Shown piece by piece: positions 281-8,682 of a DNA stretch of 9,240 bases. A program made the position numbers and the translations under genes. Origin of the DNA: Escherichia coli (lineage in GTDB: Bacteria > Pseudomonadota > Gammaproteobacteria > Enterobacterales > Enterobacteriaceae); NCBI RefSeq assembly GCF_003334385.1, contig NZ_QOWN01000070.1, one strand, 5' to 3'. Under the pieces are notes generated by a model. The model ran no database searches. It was not told the origin of the DNA and worked only from the letters and a program-made list of their open reading frames with translations. The number at the start of each line of letters is the position of its first letter. Position 1 is the first letter of the stretch.

Positions 281-471
281 TGGAAGGATAGCGGTCATGT
301 GATGCCGGTTTCCCGGTAACTCAGCACCGGTATCTGAGTCAACGTTTTCTCTACTGGGTCATTTCCGATACGCCCTGCCTGCTGACAGGCTTTCATCACA
401 TCTGAAAATATAGCACCCTGACTGATACTGTAGTACCCAAGGTTCCAGAAACTGTGATGTATCCGGCACAG

Positions 472-494
472 AAAAGCCCCTCCGGAGAGGGGCT
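472..494 (-). terminator. Intrinsic terminator, minus-strand orientation
   Basis: Perfect 8-bp inverted repeat agcccctc / gaggggct with loop cgga (475-494), preceded on plus by gaaaa; the minus-strand RNA is a hairpin followed by UUUUCUGUG. Confidence 0.55.
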
Positions 495-518
495 GGAGAG
501 TGGCGCTATGTGCCATTG

Positions 519-699
519 CATGGTGCCGGGTGCCTCCCGGTGAGTTCAGTATCAGCACCTGAACCCGCACAGAAAGGATAAGGGTCGGTGACAAAACACC
601 AGTTGCTGATTGCCCCTCCGCACAGGGGGATTCACCATGCCAGTTTCTTTTAACAAACTCCCCGCAAACCAGACAACAGTCAACCGCCTGAATTGTGAG
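519..699. repeat. Copy B of the ~180-bp structured repeat
   Basis: Same three conserved blocks as copy A (519-549, 612-640, 688-699) with diverged spacers. A second hairpin in both copies (gttcag...ctgaac in B, gttcag...ctaaac in A) varies between copies. Confidence 0.6.
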
Positions 700-744: not shown

Positions 745-821
745 TGGCGCGTTCTACTGTATTCGAACCAGTGACCGATTGCTTAGAAGGCAATTGCTCT
801 GTCCGGCTGAGCTAACAACGC
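745..821 (-). tRNA. tRNA-Arg (anticodon UCU), phage-type (argO-like position)
   Basis: Minus-strand read: GCGTTGT-TA-GCTC-AGCCGGACA-GAGC-A-ATTGC-CTTCTAA-GCAAT-CGGTC-ACTGG-TTCGAAT-ACAGT-AGAACGC-G-CCA. D and anticodon stems are perfect, the T-loop is TTCGAAT, and the 3' CCA is encoded. One mismatch each in the acceptor stem and T-stem. Confidence 0.7.
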
Positions 822-834
822 AGGATACAGATAA

Positions 835-911
835 TGAACCGCCTTCGGGGACCCGAACTCCGCGCAACCAGCTTCGAAGGCTGGCGCTCTTTCCTGATGA
901 GCTAATGGCGG
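835..911 (-). tRNA. tRNA-like gene, possibly tRNA-Arg (anticodon UCG) or a degenerate tRNA pseudogene (argN-like position)
   Basis: Minus-strand read: CCGCCAT-TA-GCTC-ATCAGGAAA-GAGC-G-CCAGC-CTTCGAA-GCTGG-TTGCG-CGGAG-TTCGGGT-CCCCG-AAGGCGG-T-TCA. D and anticodon arms are perfect, but the T-loop is non-canonical (TTCGGGT), acceptor and T stems each carry one mismatch, and the 3' end reads TCA rather than CCA. Confidence 0.4.
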
Positions 912-918
912 TATGTGA

Positions 919-994
919 TGGTGGCCCTTGCTGGATTTGAACCAGCGACCTGGCGATTATGAGTCGCTCACTCTCACCACTGAGCTAAAGGGCC
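919..994 (-). tRNA. tRNA with anticodon CAU (tRNA-Ile2 or tRNA-Met type; ileZ-like position)
   Basis: Minus-strand read: GGCCCTT-TA-GCTC-AGTGGTGA-GAGT-G-AGCGA-CTCATAA-TCGCC-AGGTC-GCTGG-TTCAAAT-CCAGC-AAGGGCC-A-CCA. Acceptor and T stems are perfect, the T-loop is canonical, CCA is encoded; 76 nt. Confidence 0.75.
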
Positions 995-1004
995 GAGCCA
1001 AAAA

Positions 1005-1033
1005 ATAATAATCAGATGAAAATCAATAATCAA
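1005..1033 (-). promoter_or_regulatory. Sigma70-like promoter for the tRNA cluster
   Basis: On the minus strand, TTGATT (plus 1028-1033), a 17-nt spacer, then TATTAT (plus 1005-1010), ending about 10 nt upstream of the tRNA 5' end at 994. Overlaps the 3' end of the AraC-like ORF. Confidence 0.35.
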
Positions 1034-1736
1034 GCCCTTGCCTGGATACATATCTGTCTGGCGGGAAGCCATAATAGCGGTGAAATACAGAAATAAAGTA
1101 GGACCTGCTTGAATAACCGCATTTTTCTGCTATAGCCTGTCCATATCCATGCCGGGAACATAACATATTTACAGCAACACGCATCCGCTCTTCCAGCAAC
1201 AAGCGACTGAACATGCCCCCTTCATTTTTCAGTTTTGTCTTTAACAAACTCTCACTCATATGCAACTGTAGAGCAATCGCACCAAGCGTCCAGCTTGCTG
1301 ATATATCTGTCTGAATTATCGCCCTGACTTTGGCACTTATGCTGGATAAACATCCACTTAAAAACAATGACATCCGTTCATCTGTTTCAAACAGAGACAG
1401 GCAGGCCATCATAAGAAACATATCCGTGGCCTCTCCGGAAAATCCCTGGCTGGTAATTAAAGCCGCAGCCAACGCAGGATTGTTGGGTTCCAGCAACAGG
1501 TAAAGCGGAATGTCAGTCAGACGAGTCCTCGTCAGCTTATGCTGACTTTCCAGATATTGACTTACGACGGATTCGCTTATATCGACAATTTTAACTTTGC
1601 CATAATGCATAAGGAAAAGCTCCCTGATGCATTTGGTGGCCAGAACAACTGAGCCTGGCTTAAGTGACAACGTATCCTTTTCAAGAAAAATATTAATTGG
1701 GGAGCAAACCATGATAACTGAACAGACAACAGCCAT
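1023..1736 (-). CDS. AraC/XylS-family transcriptional regulator, YdeO/AppY/GadX-like
   Basis: ORF track, 237 aa, ATG start. The N-terminus MAVVCSVIMVC resembles the M-x-x-VCSV start I recall for YdeO/AppY. The C-terminal region (SESLLKTKLKNEGGMFSRLLLEERMRVA ... IAEKCGYSSRSYFISVFHRYYGFPP) has the pattern of the AraC-family HTH. From memory, not searched. Confidence 0.8.
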   Translation of the reverse strand: MAVVCSVIMVCSPINIFLEKDTLSLKPGSVVLATKCIRELFLMHYGKVKIVDISESVVSQYLESQHKLTRTRLTDIPLYLLLEPNNPALAAALITSQGFSGEATDMFLMMACLSLFETDERMSLFLSGCLSSISAKVRAIIQTDISASWTLGAIALQLHMSESLLKTKLKNEGGMFSRLLLEERMRVAVNMLCSRHGYGQAIAEKCGYSSRSYFISVFHRYYGFPPDRYVSRQGLDY

Positions 1737-1857: not shown

Positions 1858-1884
1858 AAATAAAAAGCCTTCAGGACTGAAGGC
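1858..1884 (-). terminator. Intrinsic terminator at the 3' end of the small winged-helix ORF, minus-strand orientation
   Basis: A-rich run 1858-1866 then hairpin gccttca-ggac-tgaaggc (1867-1884); the minus-strand RNA is a hairpin followed by UUUUUAUUUG. Overlaps the stop codon at 1871-1873. Confidence 0.55.
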
Positions 1885-2068
1885 GTCTGTAACAACCGCA
1901 CTGATAGTCTGCCAGACCCGCCATAACAAGCTGGGTCAGTATTAACTGGCAGCGTTCGCGTGAAAGGTAAGTATTCTGCGCAATCTCCCCGACTGTCGCC
2001 GGTTCGGTAACGCTTAATTCATCAAACACAACTCTGGCGGTTTCTGTCATATCCTGCTGTTTCAGCAT
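1871..2068 (-). CDS. Small winged-helix DNA-binding protein, possibly FaeA/PapI-like
   Basis: ORF track, 65 aa, ATG start with a GGAAAGGG purine-rich stretch about 9 nt upstream. The pattern ATVGEIAQNTYLSRERCQLILTQLVMAGLA resembles the recognition-helix region of PapI/FaeA-type regulators as I recall them. Low-certainty assignment. Confidence 0.5.
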   Translation of the reverse strand: MLKQQDMTETARVVFDELSVTEPATVGEIAQNTYLSRERCQLILTQLVMAGLADYQCGCYRRLQS

Positions 2069-2192
2069 GTCTTTTTACCCTTTCCGGTTAACGTGACATA
2101 CCAATAACTCTTGTCTAAAAAGCCAGCAAGATAAAAAGCCAGTATTCACGACCACCAGCGTGTTTACTGTACTGCACCAAGTTTACAGGTAC

Positions 2193-2217
2193 AAAAAACC
2201 CGCTCAGTGGCGGGTTT
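2193..2217 (-). terminator. Intrinsic terminator (minus-strand, possibly weakly bidirectional) in the divergent intergenic region
   Basis: A6 run 2193-2198, perfect 6-bp hairpin acccgc-tcagtg-gcgggt (2198-2215), then ttt. The minus-strand RNA is a hairpin followed by UUUUUUGU; on the plus strand only three U follow. Confidence 0.5.
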
Positions 2218-2281
2218 AAGTTGTGTGGCGAAGTAACCACTCTTAACACAATACAATACTTTTTGCGTACGCGTTAGTGTT

Positions 2282-2322
2282 TTGATAGAATTTTCAGCCA
2301 CATAAAAATTCATTCTTATAAT
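2282..2322 (+). promoter_or_regulatory. Putative promoter elements upstream of the AT-rich cassette
   Basis: TATAAT at 2317-2322, 12 nt upstream of the ATG at 2335, and TTGATA at 2282-2287. The 29-nt spacing is too long for a canonical -35/-10 pair, so only the -10 is credible. Confidence 0.3.
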
Positions 2323-2334
2323 TCGGGATATATA

Positions 2335-3510
2335 ATGGATATAACTTGTTTAGAATGTGGCAATGTTCTTGACGACCCAACTGTAGCTTGCGATAAATGC
2401 GGTGCCACGCCTCATGTTGTAGTGCTGGGCAAACAATCGTACTTTCCTATTGGTGCTGTAACAGCAAATCTTGAAAAAAATGATTCAAGAGCATTTGATT
2501 ATCGATTAGGTGAAGTTTGGGATCTAAAAAATGAAGTCACATCTGAATTCATAACCAGAATTGAGAAAAAATTTAGCCGAAAAAACAAATTTCATAACTT
2601 CCTAGACTCAGATCACAACCCTTCATCCATTCCTACGATCCTAAAAAAATACATTAATAAAAATAATGAATTCATTGATTTATCTAGAGCTATAATAGAG
2701 AAGCTTAAACATAATGCTAATAACGAATCGAGAGTTGCCCAACTTCAGGGGGGGAGCGTTGTTTTCATCCACTATAAGTCTACCGAACCAGAGGATTTGG
2801 GGAAACTTCTAATCGTAATGGTTGATAAACAAAGCGCCTATGACTTTGATTCGGATAAGTTGACCCCAACAAGATTAAATCCAATTAATACCGATGCCTT
2901 ACGGCAGGCTGCGATGTTCGATTTAACTTTATTCGAAGCCAGTTATCCAGAAAACAAGGGTGACTCATATGTACATTTCTTGCAAGGTAAATCTAAAAGC
3001 GATTTTTTCAAAGACTCATTAGGTTGCCGACATGATTCGGACAATAAAAGAAGCATTCAGCAATTATTCAGTGCTATAGATATTTTTGCTAGTAAAAACT
3101 CACTCGGTCGTGTACTGCGTGATACTATTGACAATGAAGTTAAATCCTTACTGGAAAAAAAATCAAAAGATAAACACGGAAATAAGTCCGTTAAGATAGA
3201 GGATATTTCAAAAATAATTGACTCATGCCTGACTGATTCACACAAATGTAAGGGAACGTTTGTCGATTTTGTTAATCTTAATGGTTTCCAGATTGACCCT
3301 CAATTTGAACCAACTCCTAAAGCAGCTGAAAGCGCGCTTACAATTGAAGTGGCAGATAACGACAATAATTTTAAGTTGAAAATAATGCGTGGAGCTATTG
3401 GAGACGAAAAGTCAAATAAGCCTGTAATTCTCACTGACAACAAATGCGAAATTGTGATAAAATTGAGTCAGGCAAATTATGATGAACTCAAAAGATATAG
3501 AGACAGCTAA
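2335..3510 (+). CDS. Cassette gene 1: N-terminal zinc-ribbon fused to an NdpA/YejK-like (NA37 family) nucleoid-associated-protein-like domain
   Basis: ORF track, 391 aa. The DNA is AT-rich (about 30% GC on a sampled 60-nt line, versus about 58% on a sampled line in the helicase gene). CxxC-x10-CxxC at C5, C8, C19, C22. The motifs GGSVVFIHY ... LLIVMVD ... AAMFDLTLF ... YVHFLQGKSKSDFFKDSLG match the order and spacing I recall for E. coli YejK (GG-V-LF-HY ... LLVAVL ... ARIDLTEW ... [22 protein letters not shown]). From memory, not verified. Confidence 0.8.
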   Translation: MDITCLECGNVLDDPTVACDKCGATPHVVVLGKQSYFPIGAVTANLEKNDSRAFDYRLGEVWDLKNEVTSEFITRIEKKFSRKNKFHNFLDSDHNPSSIPTILKKYINKNNEFIDLSRAIIEKLKHNANNESRVAQLQGGSVVFIHYKSTEPEDLGKLLIVMVDKQSAYDFDSDKLTPTRLNPINTDALRQAAMFDLTLFEASYPENKGDSYVHFLQGKSKSDFFKDSLGCRHDSDNKRSIQQLFSAIDIFASKNSLGRVLRDTIDNEVKSLLEKKSKDKHGNKSVKIEDISKIIDSCLTDSHKCKGTFVDFVNLNGFQIDPQFEPTPKAAESALTIEVADNDNNFKLKIMRGAIGDEKSNKPVILTDNKCEIVIKLSQANYDELKRYRDS

Positions 3511-3512
3511 TA

Positions 3513-4727
3513 ATGACAATTGCTGATGACTTATCAAGATTAGCGCAGATTATTAACGGAGCCTCAAGCAGAGTTGAGGGCTACTACACTGTCATAAGTC
3601 TTGAAGAAAGCATTGTTATTGTAAATAGTTCTGAAATAATTAGACTGTTACAATCTATAGGTTATAAAAAGGCAACAACCTGCATCGAAAATAATGAAAT
3701 TTGGCTAGATCGCCAAGCTTCATCTTGGGATGACGCTATAATTTATGAGAATGTTGAGTCTTTTTGGTCTAGAGTAAACACCCAAAACGCTCTTCCGAAA
3801 AATTATATCATCGGAACGCCGTTAATACTCCCTACTTCTAAGAATGAAAGCATCGAAAAAATCCATATTTTCTTTATGTGGAAAGATATCCTTTCATTAA
3901 TTGCTGATCATCATAACAGTGACTGCTCTGTCTTATTTTTCACCAATGAAGACAAAAGTTATACAGTCGAACTCACGCATTTTTTACAATATAGCGAGAT
4001 TAATCGCTTATCGAACTCGTCTCTTAAATATGAAATTATAAAGGAGCTTCTCGACACAATAAAAATCAATGATTTACACAAAAGCGAGCGCAAGCTCGTT
4101 ATACGCTCAGCCATAAACGAAGTATTTAAAGCAAATGGTACGTTCAATTTCTTTGACTTGCTTAACTCTACTGAACTCGTCAGGAAAAAATATGATGAAC
4201 TATATGAGATTTACACAAAGAGGTTTTCTGTAAATAAAATTCTTAACGAACTCGATGAGAAAAATCTTGAGTTCACGAGTAAAATTAACGAATTCATATC
4301 ATCTAATCAGACAAAAGCATTGACTATTCCCGGTGCATTAATAGCTGCTGGTGGCTTAGTGAAGGCTAATGAAACAACCGAAGCAATATTGATTATCGCA
4401 GGACTTTGGATGATAAAAAAAGTCAATTACATTTCTATTGAGATATTCAATGAAACATTCGACAACTTACGTTCTCGAGTGGAGTCCGCTTTCGATAAGT
4501 ATTTAAAGTTTGAAGAAAATAAAGAAATCAAAGATAATGCAGATAGTATTAAGAGTAGCATTACAGGTTTGATTGATAAAGCTAAAAAAAGGATGAGAAC
4601 TGTTAAATATCTCGCATCAGCCATGTTTTATGGAGGCCTTATTTACGTTGGATATAAACAGTTCCCAGTCTTTTTTGAAAAATCGGCAGTAAATCTATTT
4701 TATTTTTTATGCCATACTATAAGCTAA
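3513..4727 (+). CDS. Cassette gene 2: predicted membrane-associated protein of unknown function (candidate effector)
   Basis: ORF track, 404 aa. The ATG lies 2 nt after the gene 1 stop, indicating an operon. AT-rich. Hydrophobic segments ALTIPGALIAAGGLV and AILIIAGLWMI (about nt 4318-4420) and the C-terminal YLASAMFYGGLIYVGY (about nt 4608-4680). No catalytic motif recognised. Confidence 0.8.
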   Translation: MTIADDLSRLAQIINGASSRVEGYYTVISLEESIVIVNSSEIIRLLQSIGYKKATTCIENNEIWLDRQASSWDDAIIYENVESFWSRVNTQNALPKNYIIGTPLILPTSKNESIEKIHIFFMWKDILSLIADHHNSDCSVLFFTNEDKSYTVELTHFLQYSEINRLSNSSLKYEIIKELLDTIKINDLHKSERKLVIRSAINEVFKANGTFNFFDLLNSTELVRKKYDELYEIYTKRFSVNKILNELDEKNLEFTSKINEFISSNQTKALTIPGALIAAGGLVKANETTEAILIIAGLWMIKKVNYISIEIFNETFDNLRSRVESAFDKYLKFEENKEIKDNADSIKSSITGLIDKAKKRMRTVKYLASAMFYGGLIYVGYKQFPVFFEKSAVNLFYFLCHTIS

Positions 4728-5063
4728 CATTGCTAAACAGCCGTCAACAAACCCCATTGCAGTTTGCAGTTCCTTCCTAATTGTGCCATCAGAGCATTTT
4801 CTCTTCTTCGCAATAGTACGTAATGAGATACCGATAACAAAGTGGGCGATGATGAGCTCATATTCCTCTGGTTTATACCTTCTCAACCGAGCCACACAAC
4901 TGTCTATCATGATGCCTTCGTCATCATCACACTGAATCCGTGACTTTTTGCCATGAGGTAAAAGTCCCTTGAAACCAGCCGCTATCGGCTGCCAGTCCAC
5001 TCCGCTATTGTCTGAAGCAGCCCAAGCTCCCCAACGATCCATTACTTCATACATATCACGCAT
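4707..5063 (-). CDS. Phage antitermination protein Q (QuuD-like small Q family)
   Basis: The ORF track calls 4707..5078 from a TTG. I prefer the in-frame ATG at 5061-5063, which has GGAGA 6 nt upstream and gives MRDMYEVMDRWGAWAA..., matching the M-R-D...ERWGAWAA start I recall for DLP12 QuuD-type Q proteins. The 3' end overlaps cassette gene 2 convergently by 21 bp. Confidence 0.75.
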   Translation of the reverse strand: MRDMYEVMDRWGAWAASDNSGVDWQPIAAGFKGLLPHGKKSRIQCDDDEGIMIDSCVARLRRYKPEEYELIIAHFVIGISLRTIAKKRKCSDGTIRKELQTAMGFVDGCLAMLAYSMA

Positions 5064-5080
5064 CAACTTTCTCCACAAAA

Positions 5081-6100
5081 TCAGGCCAGCACACCAATTG
5101 CCAGCGCACGATCGATAAAACGAAATATCAACTCCAGCTGGGAGCCATACTTCTCTTCAAATGCCACGGTATCCGCATGCAGCTCGTCGTGATGCTTTCT
5201 GCACAAAGGCAACACAAAGAGATCATGCGCTTTTGTACCCATTCCCCCCTGACCGTGGCCTATCAGATGGTGGGGATCATCAGCAGGCTTTCCACAACAT
5301 GCACACGGCTGCGTCTTAACCCAGCGCGTGTACTTTTCATTAACCCAGCGGCGACGTTTGGGGCGTAACATAAAAGACTCCGGCGACTCCGGATCCACTT
5401 TCAGCGCCAGCACCTTTTTCGCTTTATCCTGGATGATGCTGGTGGCAGGAACCGAAGGCACAAGGTCACTTTCCCGGGTGACAGACGGCACAACAGGCTT
5501 CGGTAATCTCAGTGCCTTACGGGCTGCACTTTCCGGTAAGGCATCCGCCAGGTCATTACGAATCAGCCACCAGCACAGTTCCGGCATTGTCACAACGTGA
5601 CTGTCATCAAAACCAAGATCACGGCGCACAACAGATAACACCCAGCGGGCACAGTTATCCGTTGCCATTGCTTCCAGCCGTTCCGTGAACTGGTCACGGA
5701 GAAGATTGTCACAGTGCCAGCACAGACGGATTGCACCCGGCGCGTGTCGCATTGTGGTCATGTTCTCGCTGTGCCATCCGGAATGAGGCCACTGACAGCC
5801 CTTTTCACGAAGTAACCAGCTTTCAAGACATTCCACCCCACCAGTACAACGAATAACTGCCTCATTGCGGAACACGGCCCGAACGGCAGGATCATCCGCC
5901 AGCGGTTGTGATGCTGCCGGAACGGCACCGCTGGCGAAAGATGAATAACGTTCCGGCTCAGGCTCCAGCAGGACACGCCCCTGCATAAACAGGGGCATCA
6001 GCTCTGAACCGGGCCTGAACAATACAATCCCCATACGCGGGGCAATTTCAGGGGTCAGCAGTGCTCTCACGGTCACCTCAGCAAACGATATTGAATGCAT
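5081..6100 (-). CDS. DUF968-like phage protein with a C-terminal Cys/His (HNH-like) motif
   Basis: ORF track, 339 aa, ATG start. The C-terminal motif CACCGKPADDPHHLIGHGQGG...LPLCRKHHDELH resembles the YdfU/DUF968 family found just upstream of Q in E. coli prophages. From memory. Confidence 0.7.
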   Translation of the reverse strand: MHSISFAEVTVRALLTPEIAPRMGIVLFRPGSELMPLFMQGRVLLEPEPERYSSFASGAVPAASQPLADDPAVRAVFRNEAVIRCTGGVECLESWLLREKGCQWPHSGWHSENMTTMRHAPGAIRLCWHCDNLLRDQFTERLEAMATDNCARWVLSVVRRDLGFDDSHVVTMPELCWWLIRNDLADALPESAARKALRLPKPVVPSVTRESDLVPSVPATSIIQDKAKKVLALKVDPESPESFMLRPKRRRWVNEKYTRWVKTQPCACCGKPADDPHHLIGHGQGGMGTKAHDLFVLPLCRKHHDELHADTVAFEEKYGSQLELIFRFIDRALAIGVLA

Positions 6101-6121: not shown

Positions 6122-6379
6122 TCACGCAGTAAACTCCTTCACCAGTATTTCAAACTGGCTTACCTGTCCTTCCAGTTCCGCCACGCAATCCACCAGCTCA
6201 TCCACCGCCTTTTGTGTGCGGTGTTTTGCCTGCAGCAGATCACGAAGCGCCGGAGTAAGCTGCTTGCGGAGCGTATCTTTTTTCACGCTCGTTTTTTCCA
6301 TCTGTTCAGCACAACGAAGCATCTCCTGCGCCTGCCGACGAAGTTGTTCCGGTGAAACAGTGATTGTTCTGTTGTTCAA
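6122..6379 (-). CDS. Hypothetical small phage protein (85 aa, predicted helical)
   Basis: ORF track; TTG start overlapping the helicase stop (TTGA), with GGAG about 8 nt upstream; no in-frame ATG until residue 20. Charged, helix-like composition. No family recognised. Confidence 0.45.
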   Translation of the reverse strand: MNNRTITVSPEQLRRQAQEMLRCAEQMEKTSVKKDTLRKQLTPALRDLLQAKHRTQKAVDELVDCVAELEGQVSQFEILVKEFTA

Positions 6380-7776
6380 AATAAACGCTCCGTTTTACTG
6401 CCCGACATGCGGTTATTGCTGTATCTGCGCGGATTGCCCGGCGTCATGGGTGTGGAAAGAACCCGGGCACTCTCCTGGTCCACAGGCAGAAAATGTCCGT
6501 TATGAAAACGCCGGTAAATGGTCCCGAGCGTGCCATTACGCTGTTTCGTGATGTTGATTTCTGCTATGCCTCTGGCCTGAGTTTCCGGGTTGTATACCTC
6601 ATCCCTGTAAAGCATCAGAATGATGTCGGCATCCGCCTCGATTTCCCCGGAGTTTTTCAGGTCCGAGTTCATTGGGCGTTTATTGGGTCTGGATTCCACG
6701 CCGCGGGAGAGCTGGCTCAGAGCAATCAGCGGAAAACCGCCGGATTTTGCCAGGCTTTTAAGTCCCTTTGAGATTTCCCCCACCGCAAGGTCGTGACGCC
6801 CCGTGCTGCGGGTTTTAATCAGGCCGAGGTAATCGACCACCACCAGCGCCGTTTCCGGGTGTTTCATCCGGTGGTGCTTCGTGGTTGCACATATCTCATC
6901 AATGGTCAGGTTTGCCTGGTCCACCATCCAGATATTACGCCCCGTCATTCGTCCCACGCCCTGCGAGAAACGCGCCCAGTCTTCATCTTCAAAACGGGCA
7001 ACAGACTTAAGACGGGATACCGGCATTCCACCGGCAGCAGACACCATACGTTCACCAATCTGGATGTTCGCCATCTCCATGGTGAACAGAAGCACGCCAT
7101 GCCCCTGCTCAGTCACCTTGTCGATGATGTCCAGCGCAAGTTCGGTTTTCCCCATCGAAGGACGGGCGGCAATGAATACCAGGTCTCCGGGCTCCATACC
7201 GCCCGTTTTTGCGTCCAGTTCATCAATACCGGTCATCAGCGCCCTGGATTTCTCCAGTCCCTGATTGCGGCATTCAACACGGTCGACCACTTCCGGAAGG
7301 ACATCATCAATGTGAACCGGCTGAATGACGCCCTTTCCGGTCGACAGTGAGGCCATCATGTTCTGCACATCCTTCAGGGCATCCTCGGCTGCTTCACAGG
7401 TATACGCATCACGTAAATTCTGTAATGCTTCAGTCAGTGTTTTTTCTGCATCGCGCAGTGCGGCATTGCGCCGCAACGCTGCGACATAGTGCTCCAGTGA
7501 AGACTTCACCCAGGTTTTGCGTCCGGTGTCGGTAATCACCGGGGCAAGTTCCGGCATCTCATTGCACAGCAGTACGGGGTCAATGACGCCGGATATGCGA
7601 GCCTGTCTGCAAATCCCCGCGTAAATATCCCGGTACTGACGCACAAAAAATACATCCGCCGGAAGTGTGGCCAGAATATCCATCACTTCCGGATCGGCCC
7701 CACGCAGAAAAAACGCACCGATGACAGCGCCTTCCAGGTCATCGTTACGCCATGCCGGGGTGTTCTGGCTGGTCAT
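6376..7776 (-). CDS. DnaB-family replicative DNA helicase (phage-encoded)
   Basis: ORF track, 466 aa, ATG start with GGAGGTG 7 nt upstream. Walker A ARPSMGKT, and the block ALSQLSRGVESRPNKRPMNSDLKNSGEIEADADIILMLYRDEVY closely parallels E. coli DnaB ([44 protein letters not shown]). Confidence 0.9.
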   Translation of the reverse strand: MTSQNTPAWRNDDLEGAVIGAFFLRGADPEVMDILATLPADVFFVRQYRDIYAGICRQARISGVIDPVLLCNEMPELAPVITDTGRKTWVKSSLEHYVAALRRNAALRDAEKTLTEALQNLRDAYTCEAAEDALKDVQNMMASLSTGKGVIQPVHIDDVLPEVVDRVECRNQGLEKSRALMTGIDELDAKTGGMEPGDLVFIAARPSMGKTELALDIIDKVTEQGHGVLLFTMEMANIQIGERMVSAAGGMPVSRLKSVARFEDEDWARFSQGVGRMTGRNIWMVDQANLTIDEICATTKHHRMKHPETALVVVDYLGLIKTRSTGRHDLAVGEISKGLKSLAKSGGFPLIALSQLSRGVESRPNKRPMNSDLKNSGEIEADADIILMLYRDEVYNPETQARGIAEINITKQRNGTLGTIYRRFHNGHFLPVDQESARVLSTPMTPGNPRRYSNNRMSGSKTERLF

Positions 7777-8672
7777 GCGGCAACACCTCCGATACGAGAA
7801 CGGTAGCTGGGCCAGTTAAACGACAACCAGTTGCGCCCGTCATCGGTGATCCTGTCGGCAATCCGGGGACTGATGAACGCCCACAATTCTTCCGGTGAAA
7901 GATTGCTGATCAAGATAGTTGGCAAAATACCCTCATACCGGGCATTGATAATTTCCTGCAAAATGGCCATTTCAGCCGCACTGCCAAACTGAACGCCGAC
8001 TTCGTCGACAATCAGCAAATCCAGTGACGCATAATGCTCAATGACGTCATCCGCTGTTTTTTCACTGTCATTCCGCCAGCAGTTTTTCACAGCCCGGGTA
8101 AGGCGCATCACGTCGGTGATCTCCACACTGGCCAGATAGTTACGGATGATGTGTTTTGCCATTGATACCGCCAGATGATTTTTCCCGGTACCGCAACTGC
8201 CGGTCATAACAAGACTGGTACCGTTCTCCAGCATATCTGGCCAGTTCTCCGCATAGCGGCGACAGGCCGCAAGATTTCTGGCTGCGTCAGGATTAACCTC
8301 CAGATAATTATCAAACTCGCAGTCCCGAAAACGCAGAGCAATTCCGGCGTTATCAGTCAGTTCTTCCGCCTTGAGGGACGACAGTTCCATGGTCAAATCA
8401 CTGGCCTCAGCGATCAAGCAGTCAGGGCAGCATGAAATTTTTTCTCTGTCCTCGCCATTACGATCGATCCACACCAGTATATGCGTACGATATTTACCGT
8501 GTTTTTCGCAATATCCGCGACCTTCACGCATCAGGCAGGAACGATAAGGCCATGGCTTTTCGCCCTTCTGAGCAAATGCAATCTCTGCCCGTAACTCATC
8601 CATTTCTGCCCGTAAATCATCCATTCGCGCCTGTAGTCTTGTTTGTTTCTCACGTTGGTCAATCGTCATCAT
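7773..8672 (-). CDS. DnaC-like helicase loader (AAA+ ATPase)
   Basis: The ORF track calls 7773..8681 from a GTG. I prefer the ATG at 8670-8672, with GAGGTGA about 5 nt upstream. Walker A GSCGTGKNHLA, Walker B LLIVDEVG, and C-terminal FNWPSYRSR (E. coli DnaC has FNWDSYRSR). The stop overlaps the helicase start (ATGA). Confidence 0.85.
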   Translation of the reverse strand: MMTIDQREKQTRLQARMDDLRAEMDELRAEIAFAQKGEKPWPYRSCLMREGRGYCEKHGKYRTHILVWIDRNGEDREKISCCPDCLIAEASDLTMELSSLKAEELTDNAGIALRFRDCEFDNYLEVNPDAARNLAACRRYAENWPDMLENGTSLVMTGSCGTGKNHLAVSMAKHIIRNYLASVEITDVMRLTRAVKNCWRNDSEKTADDVIEHYASLDLLIVDEVGVQFGSAAEMAILQEIINARYEGILPTILISNLSPEELWAFISPRIADRITDDGRNWLSFNWPSYRSRIGGVAA

Positions 8673-8682
8673 CGCTGTCACC

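Follow-up and report, generated by a model that had tools for sequence, protein, structure and literature searches.

The stretch of Escherichia coli DNA analysed here (contig NZ_QOWN01000070.1, 9,240 nucleotides; this whole stretch is called the window in the following) covers the early-right arm of a lambdoid prophage, which runs on the minus strand, and carries two AT-rich cassette genes on the plus strand (2335-3510 and 3513-4727) between the antiterminator gene Q and a TrmB-like gene. In our view (probability about 0.8), the cassette is a cargo module with the anti-phage system DS-1, lodged between Q and Q's own displaced late-promoter/terminator block at a hotspot of lambdoid prophages of the DLP12/QuuD type. 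An earlier note on this DNA had argued that late transcription must cross the cassette in antisense direction if the late promoter is near Q. Such a crossing is not supported. The candidate late promoter is found below ~2300, as judged by comparison and not by 5'-end mapping, in a block at 2193-2277 that is situated beyond the cassette and directed away from it. Therefore, the cassette need not be crossed by late transcription. If true, the earlier claim would have meant that late transcription has to pass a defence cassette, which would be an unusual design. The evidence points to an ordinary one, in which foreign DNA is placed upstream of a displaced late promoter, as is nmpC in E. coli K-12. 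The features concerned are the following.

4707-5078, minus strand: Q antiterminator gene, 123 residues from a TTG start at 5078 (open reading frame list; PF06530).
2335-3510, plus strand: DS-1 gene 1, 391 residues, identical to WP_000355468.1; NCBIfam NF053868 (DS1_1_antiphage).
3513-4727, plus strand: DS-1 gene 2, 404 residues, identical to WP_000150292.1; NCBIfam NF053869 (DS1_2_antiphage).
4707-4727, both strands: tail-to-tail overlap of Q and gene 2, 21 bp, encoding LAYSMA and the stop in Q, and LCHTIS and the stop in gene 2.
2291-4737, boundaries approximate: AT-rich cargo module of ~2.45 kb, delimited by GC content and homology breaks.
2277-2265, minus strand: CTAACGCGTACGC, in which a -35-like CTAACG (2277-2272) overlaps the palindrome.
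2272-2265, minus strand: palindrome GCGTACGC, Q-clade-specific, candidate Q-binding element.
2253-2248, minus strand: -10-like TATTGT of the candidate late promoter pR', with a predicted start near 2241.
2247-2222, minus strand: conserved 26-mer GTTAAGAGTGGTTACTTCGCCACACA, presumed initially transcribed region, from the comparison.
2217-2193, minus strand: candidate terminator tR' with the stem AAACCCGC/GCGGGTTT, a 6-nt loop, and a T-run at 2198-2193, from the RNA fold.
2159-2138, minus strand: second terminator-like site downstream of tR', with a sequence shared by L001 and other relatives.

Read along the minus strand, the block consists of CTAACGCGTACGC, an A-tract, TATTGT, the 26-mer, and a hairpin with a T-run. 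Palindrome and 26-mer are each present as a single copy in the window, with zero copies of the 26-mer expected by chance. The RNA of 2185-2250 folds with -20.1 kcal/mol (z -2.15), and a hairpin with a T-run is found at the position of tR' in all relatives; the divergent members have a different hairpin sequence. The terminator scan did not list the hairpin at 2217-2193, probably because A-T pairs extend its stem into the T-run. Directly upstream of the 26-mer, a TAnnnT hexamer is present in 54 of 62 distinct sequences. The eight exceptions all belong to one cargo-free type of clade B, end in CAGTAT, and contain TATGTT three bases downstream. In blocks of the DLP12 type, the promoter arrangement is TTTACG-16-TATGCT. 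For the window we infer a late promoter at ~2248-2277, from which transcription is predicted to start near 2241. The intrinsic terminator at 2217-2193 follows shortly downstream of this candidate pR', and the late genes beyond it are all encoded on the minus strand.

The relatives were assembled into two locus collections, one by the 26-mer (120 loci) and the other by the Q protein alone and thus without bias for the 26-mer. The 26-mer is found in more than 120 loci of the phage collection and, in a diverged form, in loci picked solely by their Q protein. Combined, 176 loci have a Q of the window's family together with the block, 13 of them free of cargo and 163 with cargo. In the 13 cargo-free loci, which include the Stx2a phage LC567837 and PhiR49_2, the block begins 6-45 bp past the Q stop (also given as 16-45 bp). 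The window's homologue of this post-Q sequence occupies the minus-strand positions 2270 to 1835, beyond the cassette. In the sample based on the Q protein only, CTAACGCGTACGCAAAAA and the block follow the cargo in all 76 loci with enough downstream DNA. The cargo of the 163 loci falls into 28 sequence-distinct classes, which usually span 0.6-3.8 kb between Q and the block. All classes are AT-rich (GC content 0.30-0.46), and 26 of them are oriented antisense to Q. The cargo found most frequently is nmpC, the porin gene of DLP12. At this site of DLP12 in E. coli K-12, quuD is followed by the antisense nmpC and then by the block, 175 bp upstream of essD. A statement in PMC7918800, which cites Rueggeberg 2013, reports the DLP12 lysis operon to be under a Q-type antiterminator.

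Within the block, the palindrome follows the Q clade without exception, in 176 of 176 loci:

Q clade of the window: GCGTACGC, 100 of 100 loci, at least 15 cargo classes.
Second Q clade: GCGGTCCGC, 22 of 22 loci, 8 cargo classes.
QuuD clade: TTTACGTACGTAAA or TTTACRATCGTAAA, 50 of 50 loci, 5 gap-size classes.
Three singleton Q clades: an own palindrome each.

In contrast to the palindrome, the sequence just past the terminator recombines freely between Q clades. Because the palindrome tracks the Q clade across all 28 cargo types, it is likely to be the site at which Q binds. A host-independent, Q-type-specific element between -35 and -10 in combination with a short terminated transcript is the pattern of a late-promoter Q-binding element. 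The action of Q in trans at a promoter-proximal site with a short terminated transcript has been established for lambda, 21, and the Shiga toxin (Stx) phages (bioRxiv 10.1101/651190; PMC7547250). Two 8-bp direct repeats like those of phage 21 were considered as well and rejected, because they are present in one clade only (GTATGTCA GTATGTTA in L001), whereas the Q clade is followed by the palindrome. As a separate observation, the same DS-1 cassette and palindrome are combined with two variants of the -10 region and the 26-mer, either GTATTGTATTGT with GTTAAGAGTGGTTAC, or ATATCGTAATCT with GTTAAGTGTGCTCAC, when L130, L132, L134, and others are compared with the window. Thus, recombination has also happened between the palindrome and the -10 region.

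Several points weigh against this interpretation of the block. The invariance of the 26-mer in its 120 loci is by construction, because these were chosen for the 26-mer. The -35-like CTAACG is weak (three of six positions, 18-bp spacer) compared to the good TTTACG of the DLP12 type, and the promoter scan did not flag the window's copy with its weak -35. A mapped start site or mapped Q binding for the block was not found in the literature searched. Two first candidates for a sigma-dependent pause element were dropped again. The hexamer AAGAGT is not conserved in the Raoultella copy, and a small hairpin inside the 26-mer (GUGG..CCAC), initially backed by one apparent compensatory change, has its fourth pair broken by variants in the Q-based sample and in Raoultella. 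In addition, each cargo class was seen with one Q clade only, and part of the linkage between Q and palindrome could reflect common descent and not functional constraint.

Q belongs to the PF06530 antiterminators by profile and by position, and antitermination activity is predicted for it. The match to the Pfam model Phage_antitermQ (E 3.5e-47) aligns residues 6-120 with model positions 1-115 of 118 and is therefore full-length, whereas the match to the phage 21 Q structures 6P18/6JNX is distant (E 0.0011). The gene is placed between replication/nin-type genes (DnaC-like, DnaB-like, and DUF968 genes upstream) and the late genes of the lambdoid prophage. RefSeq annotates its product as 'antiterminator Q family protein', and the NCBI Prokaryotic Genome Annotation Pipeline (PGAP) starts it at the ATG at window position 5063, which gives 118 residues.

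What the earlier note had said about the junction itself has been confirmed. Q and gene 2 overlap tail-to-tail by 21 bp, with the Q stop at 4707-4709 and the gene 2 stop at 4725-4727 in the open reading frame list, and there is neither space nor a hairpin for a terminator or promoter between them. RNA folds of the junction are no more stable than shuffled sequences on either strand (z +1.47 and +0.64), the terminator scan reported no terminator-like site there, and the Rfam search gave no match at the junction or at the late-promoter block. E. coli NCCP15648 has a stretch of 100% identity, in which PGAP annotates the same two coding sequences with the same 21-bp overlap. Among the phage-collection loci, about 31 have the DS-1 cassette with a distance of 2457-2460 bp from the Q stop to the block and the Q tail LAYSMA (LTYSMA in one). 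At least 80% of the window positions 2000-5100 is present in 106 of 5426 complete E. coli genomes, and Raoultella has an 87%-identical cassette at the same site with a 30-bp overlap. Because it recurs in these phage loci, E. coli genomes, and Raoultella, the overlap is a fixed junction and not a product of chance.

The note had also suggested that the insertion junction is located inside the 3' end of Q, and this is borne out in two ways. First, nucleotide similarity to the other Q genes of this clade is lost gradually around codon 114 (window ~4737-4744). Q proteins of the same clade are alike as far as ...GF[VI][DE]G and then continue with a hydrophobic tail that is specific for the cargo class. 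Second, the final six codons of Q (LAYSMA) and its stop are the antisense of the conserved C-terminal codons of gene 2, whose C-terminus FYFLCHTIS is conserved in the Citrobacter, Klebsiella, and Raoultella homologues. Because this C-terminus is conserved in other genera, the 21 shared bases are cassette DNA. The GC content is 0.30-0.41 inside the module (0.30-0.37 as given for the AT-rich run from ~2290 to ~4740) compared to ~0.50 in the flanks, and the homology to relatives breaks off at ~4744-4957 on the Q side and picks up again at ~2270-2290. Judged from these sequence comparisons, the 21-bp overlap is the left edge of the cargo module carrying DS-1.

The cassette genes score above the curated cut-offs of their NCBIfam equivalog models (gene 1 with NF053868: 451 bits, cut-off 330; gene 2 with NF053869: 375 bits, cut-off 315), and a 100% identical RefSeq stretch carries WP_000355468.1 and WP_000150292.1. 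These two accessions are listed together as DS-1 (working id D390) in the supplement of PMC13092281, and this study reports the validation of DS-1 in MG1655 with protection against phage (DefensePredictor, Science 2026, PMC13092281). Given these scores and the identity of both proteins with the listed accessions, the cassette is a known and validated defence system. The window cassette is thus DS-1, and its predicted defence role follows from the identity with the validated proteins. The PADLOC search of the window proteins gave no DS-1 match; the PADLOC library is older than DS-1. The product of gene 1 has an N-terminal CxxC...CxxC motif, a putative zinc-ribbon, and a YejK/NA37-like nucleoid-associated domain, and its Raoultella homologue carries PF04245 (NA37). 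A promoter for the cassette was proposed by the consensus scan:

2282-2309, plus strand: candidate cassette promoter TTGATA-16-AAAAAT, back-to-back with the late-promoter block.

This candidate and the candidate late promoter (2248-2277, minus strand) are arranged back-to-back within ~60 bp, so that the A-rich upstream region may be used by both or be an object of competition between them.

Taken together with the displaced block, the following course of transcription can be proposed. Q, expressed from the early operon, would act in trans on the block 2.46 kb away. Late transcription would start at the block and leave the cassette behind, passing the TrmB-like gene, the AraC-like gene, and the tRNAs before it reaches the lysis and head genes. 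DS-1 would have a promoter of its own, which points away from pR' and towards Q, and its expression in the lysogen could thus be independent of late transcription. As the junction has no terminator, DS-1 transcripts would continue into antisense Q and the early Q transcript into antisense DS-1, the latter until it is stopped by Rho or by collision.

This early read-through might itself be regulatory, which is a possible but rather doubtful idea and would add to the displaced late promoter, not replace it. The transcript expressing Q would enter the cassette in antisense direction on induction and lower DS-1 expression, either through collision or through pairing of the antisense RNA. Leaky Q expression in the lysogen would be damped by DS-1 transcripts that run antisense over Q. 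Such a relation resembles that of paQ in lambda, a CII-activated promoter inside Q whose transcript is antisense to the 3' part of Q, except that here the antisense transcription of the 3' part is predicted to come from read-through of the defence operon. The idea is consistent with the DS-1 junction having no hairpin or terminator on either strand and with the scan, which found no plus-strand terminator-like site from 4727 to ~6530. A strong hairpin (free energy dG <= -10) is present within 50 nt past the Q stop in ~20 of 31 other representative junctions (a few more exist, because the scan skipped hairpins of odd length), so that DS-1 stands out without one, and the overlap without hairpin is kept in Raoultella. 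However, the minus-strand RNA just past the Q stop has more C than G (plus-strand GC skew of +0.23 to +0.28 at 4401-4700) and is untranslated. Therefore, Rho termination of polymerases that are not antiterminated would be favoured. Some antisense transcription of the cassette by early read-through past Q seems plausible as a prediction. It would be a weaker form of what the earlier note had in mind, reached by a different route.

It is improbable that the insertion has uncoupled Q from its promoter and that the window represents the remnant of a defective prophage, in which the arrangement has no regulatory meaning. Many prophages of the DLP12/QuuD type are cryptic, for example DLP12 itself, and the window alone is no proof of inducibility. 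However, most loci have cargo at this site (163 of the 176), and sequenced phage records, e.g. phiP27, have the same gap, which is 1362 bp in the phiP27-like locus L052. Q is of full length according to Pfam, and its action in trans at a distance is standard. In the identical RefSeq locus NZ_CP009050, esterase, holin, lysozyme, and terminase genes come after the tRNAs on the same strand, and of the lysis, terminase, portal, and protease genes that follow none is flagged as pseudogene there. A late promoter beside Q inside the 3' end of gene 2, by which late transcription would silence the cassette on induction, is very unlikely. In its favour, Q is followed by neither an intergenic space nor a terminator, and there is a weak promoter-like match inside gene 2 on the minus strand (4437-4410). 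However, this match is one of 16 found versus 12 expected by chance in AT-rich DNA. The block that adjoins Q in cargo-free relatives has its only copy in the window beyond the cassette, where it is intact, and 28 unrelated cargo classes, among them nmpC in K-12, displace the block in the same way.

With its late-promoter block displaced by foreign cargo, the window adds a further example to a site that has long been known from nmpC, and the defence system it carries has already been described. The window shares with quuD-nmpC-essD of DLP12 in K-12 the Q family, the block after the cargo, and the antisense orientation of the cargo to Q. Phage PA-2 offers a case similar to nmpC of DLP12 with its lc porin gene. 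However, the nmpC porin cargo has its own hairpin terminator 33-51 nt past the Q stop, whereas the cargo of the window, a defence system of two genes, has no terminator and overlaps Q with its last codons. Compared to DS-1 as presented in PMC13092281, both proteins are identical, adjacent, and encoded on the same strand, while the position between Q and the late promoter and the overlap with Q are not described in the passages on DS-1 of that paper.

The late cassettes of lambda, 21, 82, and the Stx phages (pR', Q-binding element, pause element, tR') correspond to the window in having a Q gene, a candidate promoter-proximal element specific for the type of Q, a predicted short transcript ended by an intrinsic terminator, and the late genes beyond. 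In those phages pR' directly follows Q, whereas in the window foreign DNA is found in between. The candidate binding element of the window is a palindrome, while the Q-binding element of phage 21 consists of two direct 8-bp repeats (bioRxiv 10.1101/651190). In contrast to the classical Q cassettes, candidates for a sigma-dependent pause in the block of the window failed conservation. Foreign genes in lambdoid phages are also known as morons in the definition of Hendrix and colleagues, e.g. bor, lom, and stx. The DS-1 module resembles a lambdoid moron in its foreign composition (GC content ~0.35 versus ~0.50), in its presence or absence between loci (13 without versus 163 with cargo), and probably in having its own promoter. 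Unlike a moron, it has no terminator of its own after gene 2 and only a candidate promoter, and it is not part of the late operon but precedes the late promoter.

The block provides a testable candidate late promoter, Q-binding element, and terminator for the large family of QuuD antiterminators. This family includes the Q genes of some Stx2 phages, and no mapped site was found for it in the literature searched. In addition, the gap between Q and the promoter is a well-bounded hotspot. The conserved sequences on its two sides offer a way to collect candidate defence cassettes from prophages of enterobacteria. A description of this gap as a defence hotspot was not found in the literature searched. 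It is a speculative, rather unlikely extension that this orientation-constrained cargo hotspot, most of whose classes are unannotated and pair a soluble with a membrane protein, could yield new defence systems and that DS-1, which lacks a terminator and provides the last codons of Q, and Q regulate each other by convergent transcription. If true, lysogeny would be stabilised by DS-1 read-through in the role of an anti-Q RNA, and early read-through would turn DS-1 off at the commitment to lysis.

Many cargo classes of the hotspot are unannotated two-gene sets, in which a protein of 300-360 residues is combined with a partner of 150-220 residues that appears hydrophobic or membrane-spanning by eye (L005, L024, L037, L046, L022, L127, L051, L158, L164, and L170). 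Only PDC-S20 (L108), PDC-S42/LAPAL (L006), and a Clp-like protease (L102) were recognised. The submitted members of the two-gene sets gave no NCBIfam or PADLOC match, where the small hydrophobic partners as well as L037, L127, L051, L164, and L170 were not searched. Diverged pairs similar to DS-1 are present at the same site in L103, L015, and L209 (~380 and 406 residues) and in L032 and L085 (344 and 395 residues). By eye, these possibly combine a YejK-like protein with a partner of ~400 residues. In L103, the stop of the partner overlaps the Q stop codon with four shared nucleotides.

The remaining features of the window are located on both sides of Q and the block:

7773-8681, minus strand: DnaC-like gene, upstream of Q.
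6376-7776, minus strand: DnaB-like gene, upstream of Q.
5081-6100, minus strand: DUF968 gene, upstream of Q.
5085-5105, minus strand: terminator-like hairpin followed by a T-rich tail, situated where the DUF968 gene ends and shortly before Q starts.
1871-2068, minus strand: TrmB-like gene, 65 residues, first gene past the late-promoter block; a homologue is annotated as 'TrmB family transcriptional regulator'.
1023-1736, minus strand: AraC-like regulator, 237 residues, downstream of the block in the same orientation.
745-994, minus strand: three tRNAs (Met/Arg/Arg), downstream of the block in the same orientation.
1-186, 252-425, and 464-669, minus strand: copies of the small RNA STnc100 (Rfam RF02076), two strong and one weak, just beyond the tRNAs.

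Given the hairpin at 5085-5105, the expression of Q may depend on early antitermination. The AraC-like regulator, which is placed in the path of late transcription from the TrmB-like gene to the tRNAs, has sub-threshold matches to YdeO and GadX. The tRNA at 919-994 (minus strand) is a Met(CAT) tRNA according to ARAGORN, while the identical gene is a tRNA-Ile in RefSeq. This discrepancy is compatible with a lysidine-modified tRNA of the ileX/ileZ type. Each STnc100 copy is closed by a terminator-like site with a hairpin and a T-run (192-175, 281-258, and 494-475), and a further site of this kind is found at 730-713, upstream of the copy at 464-669.

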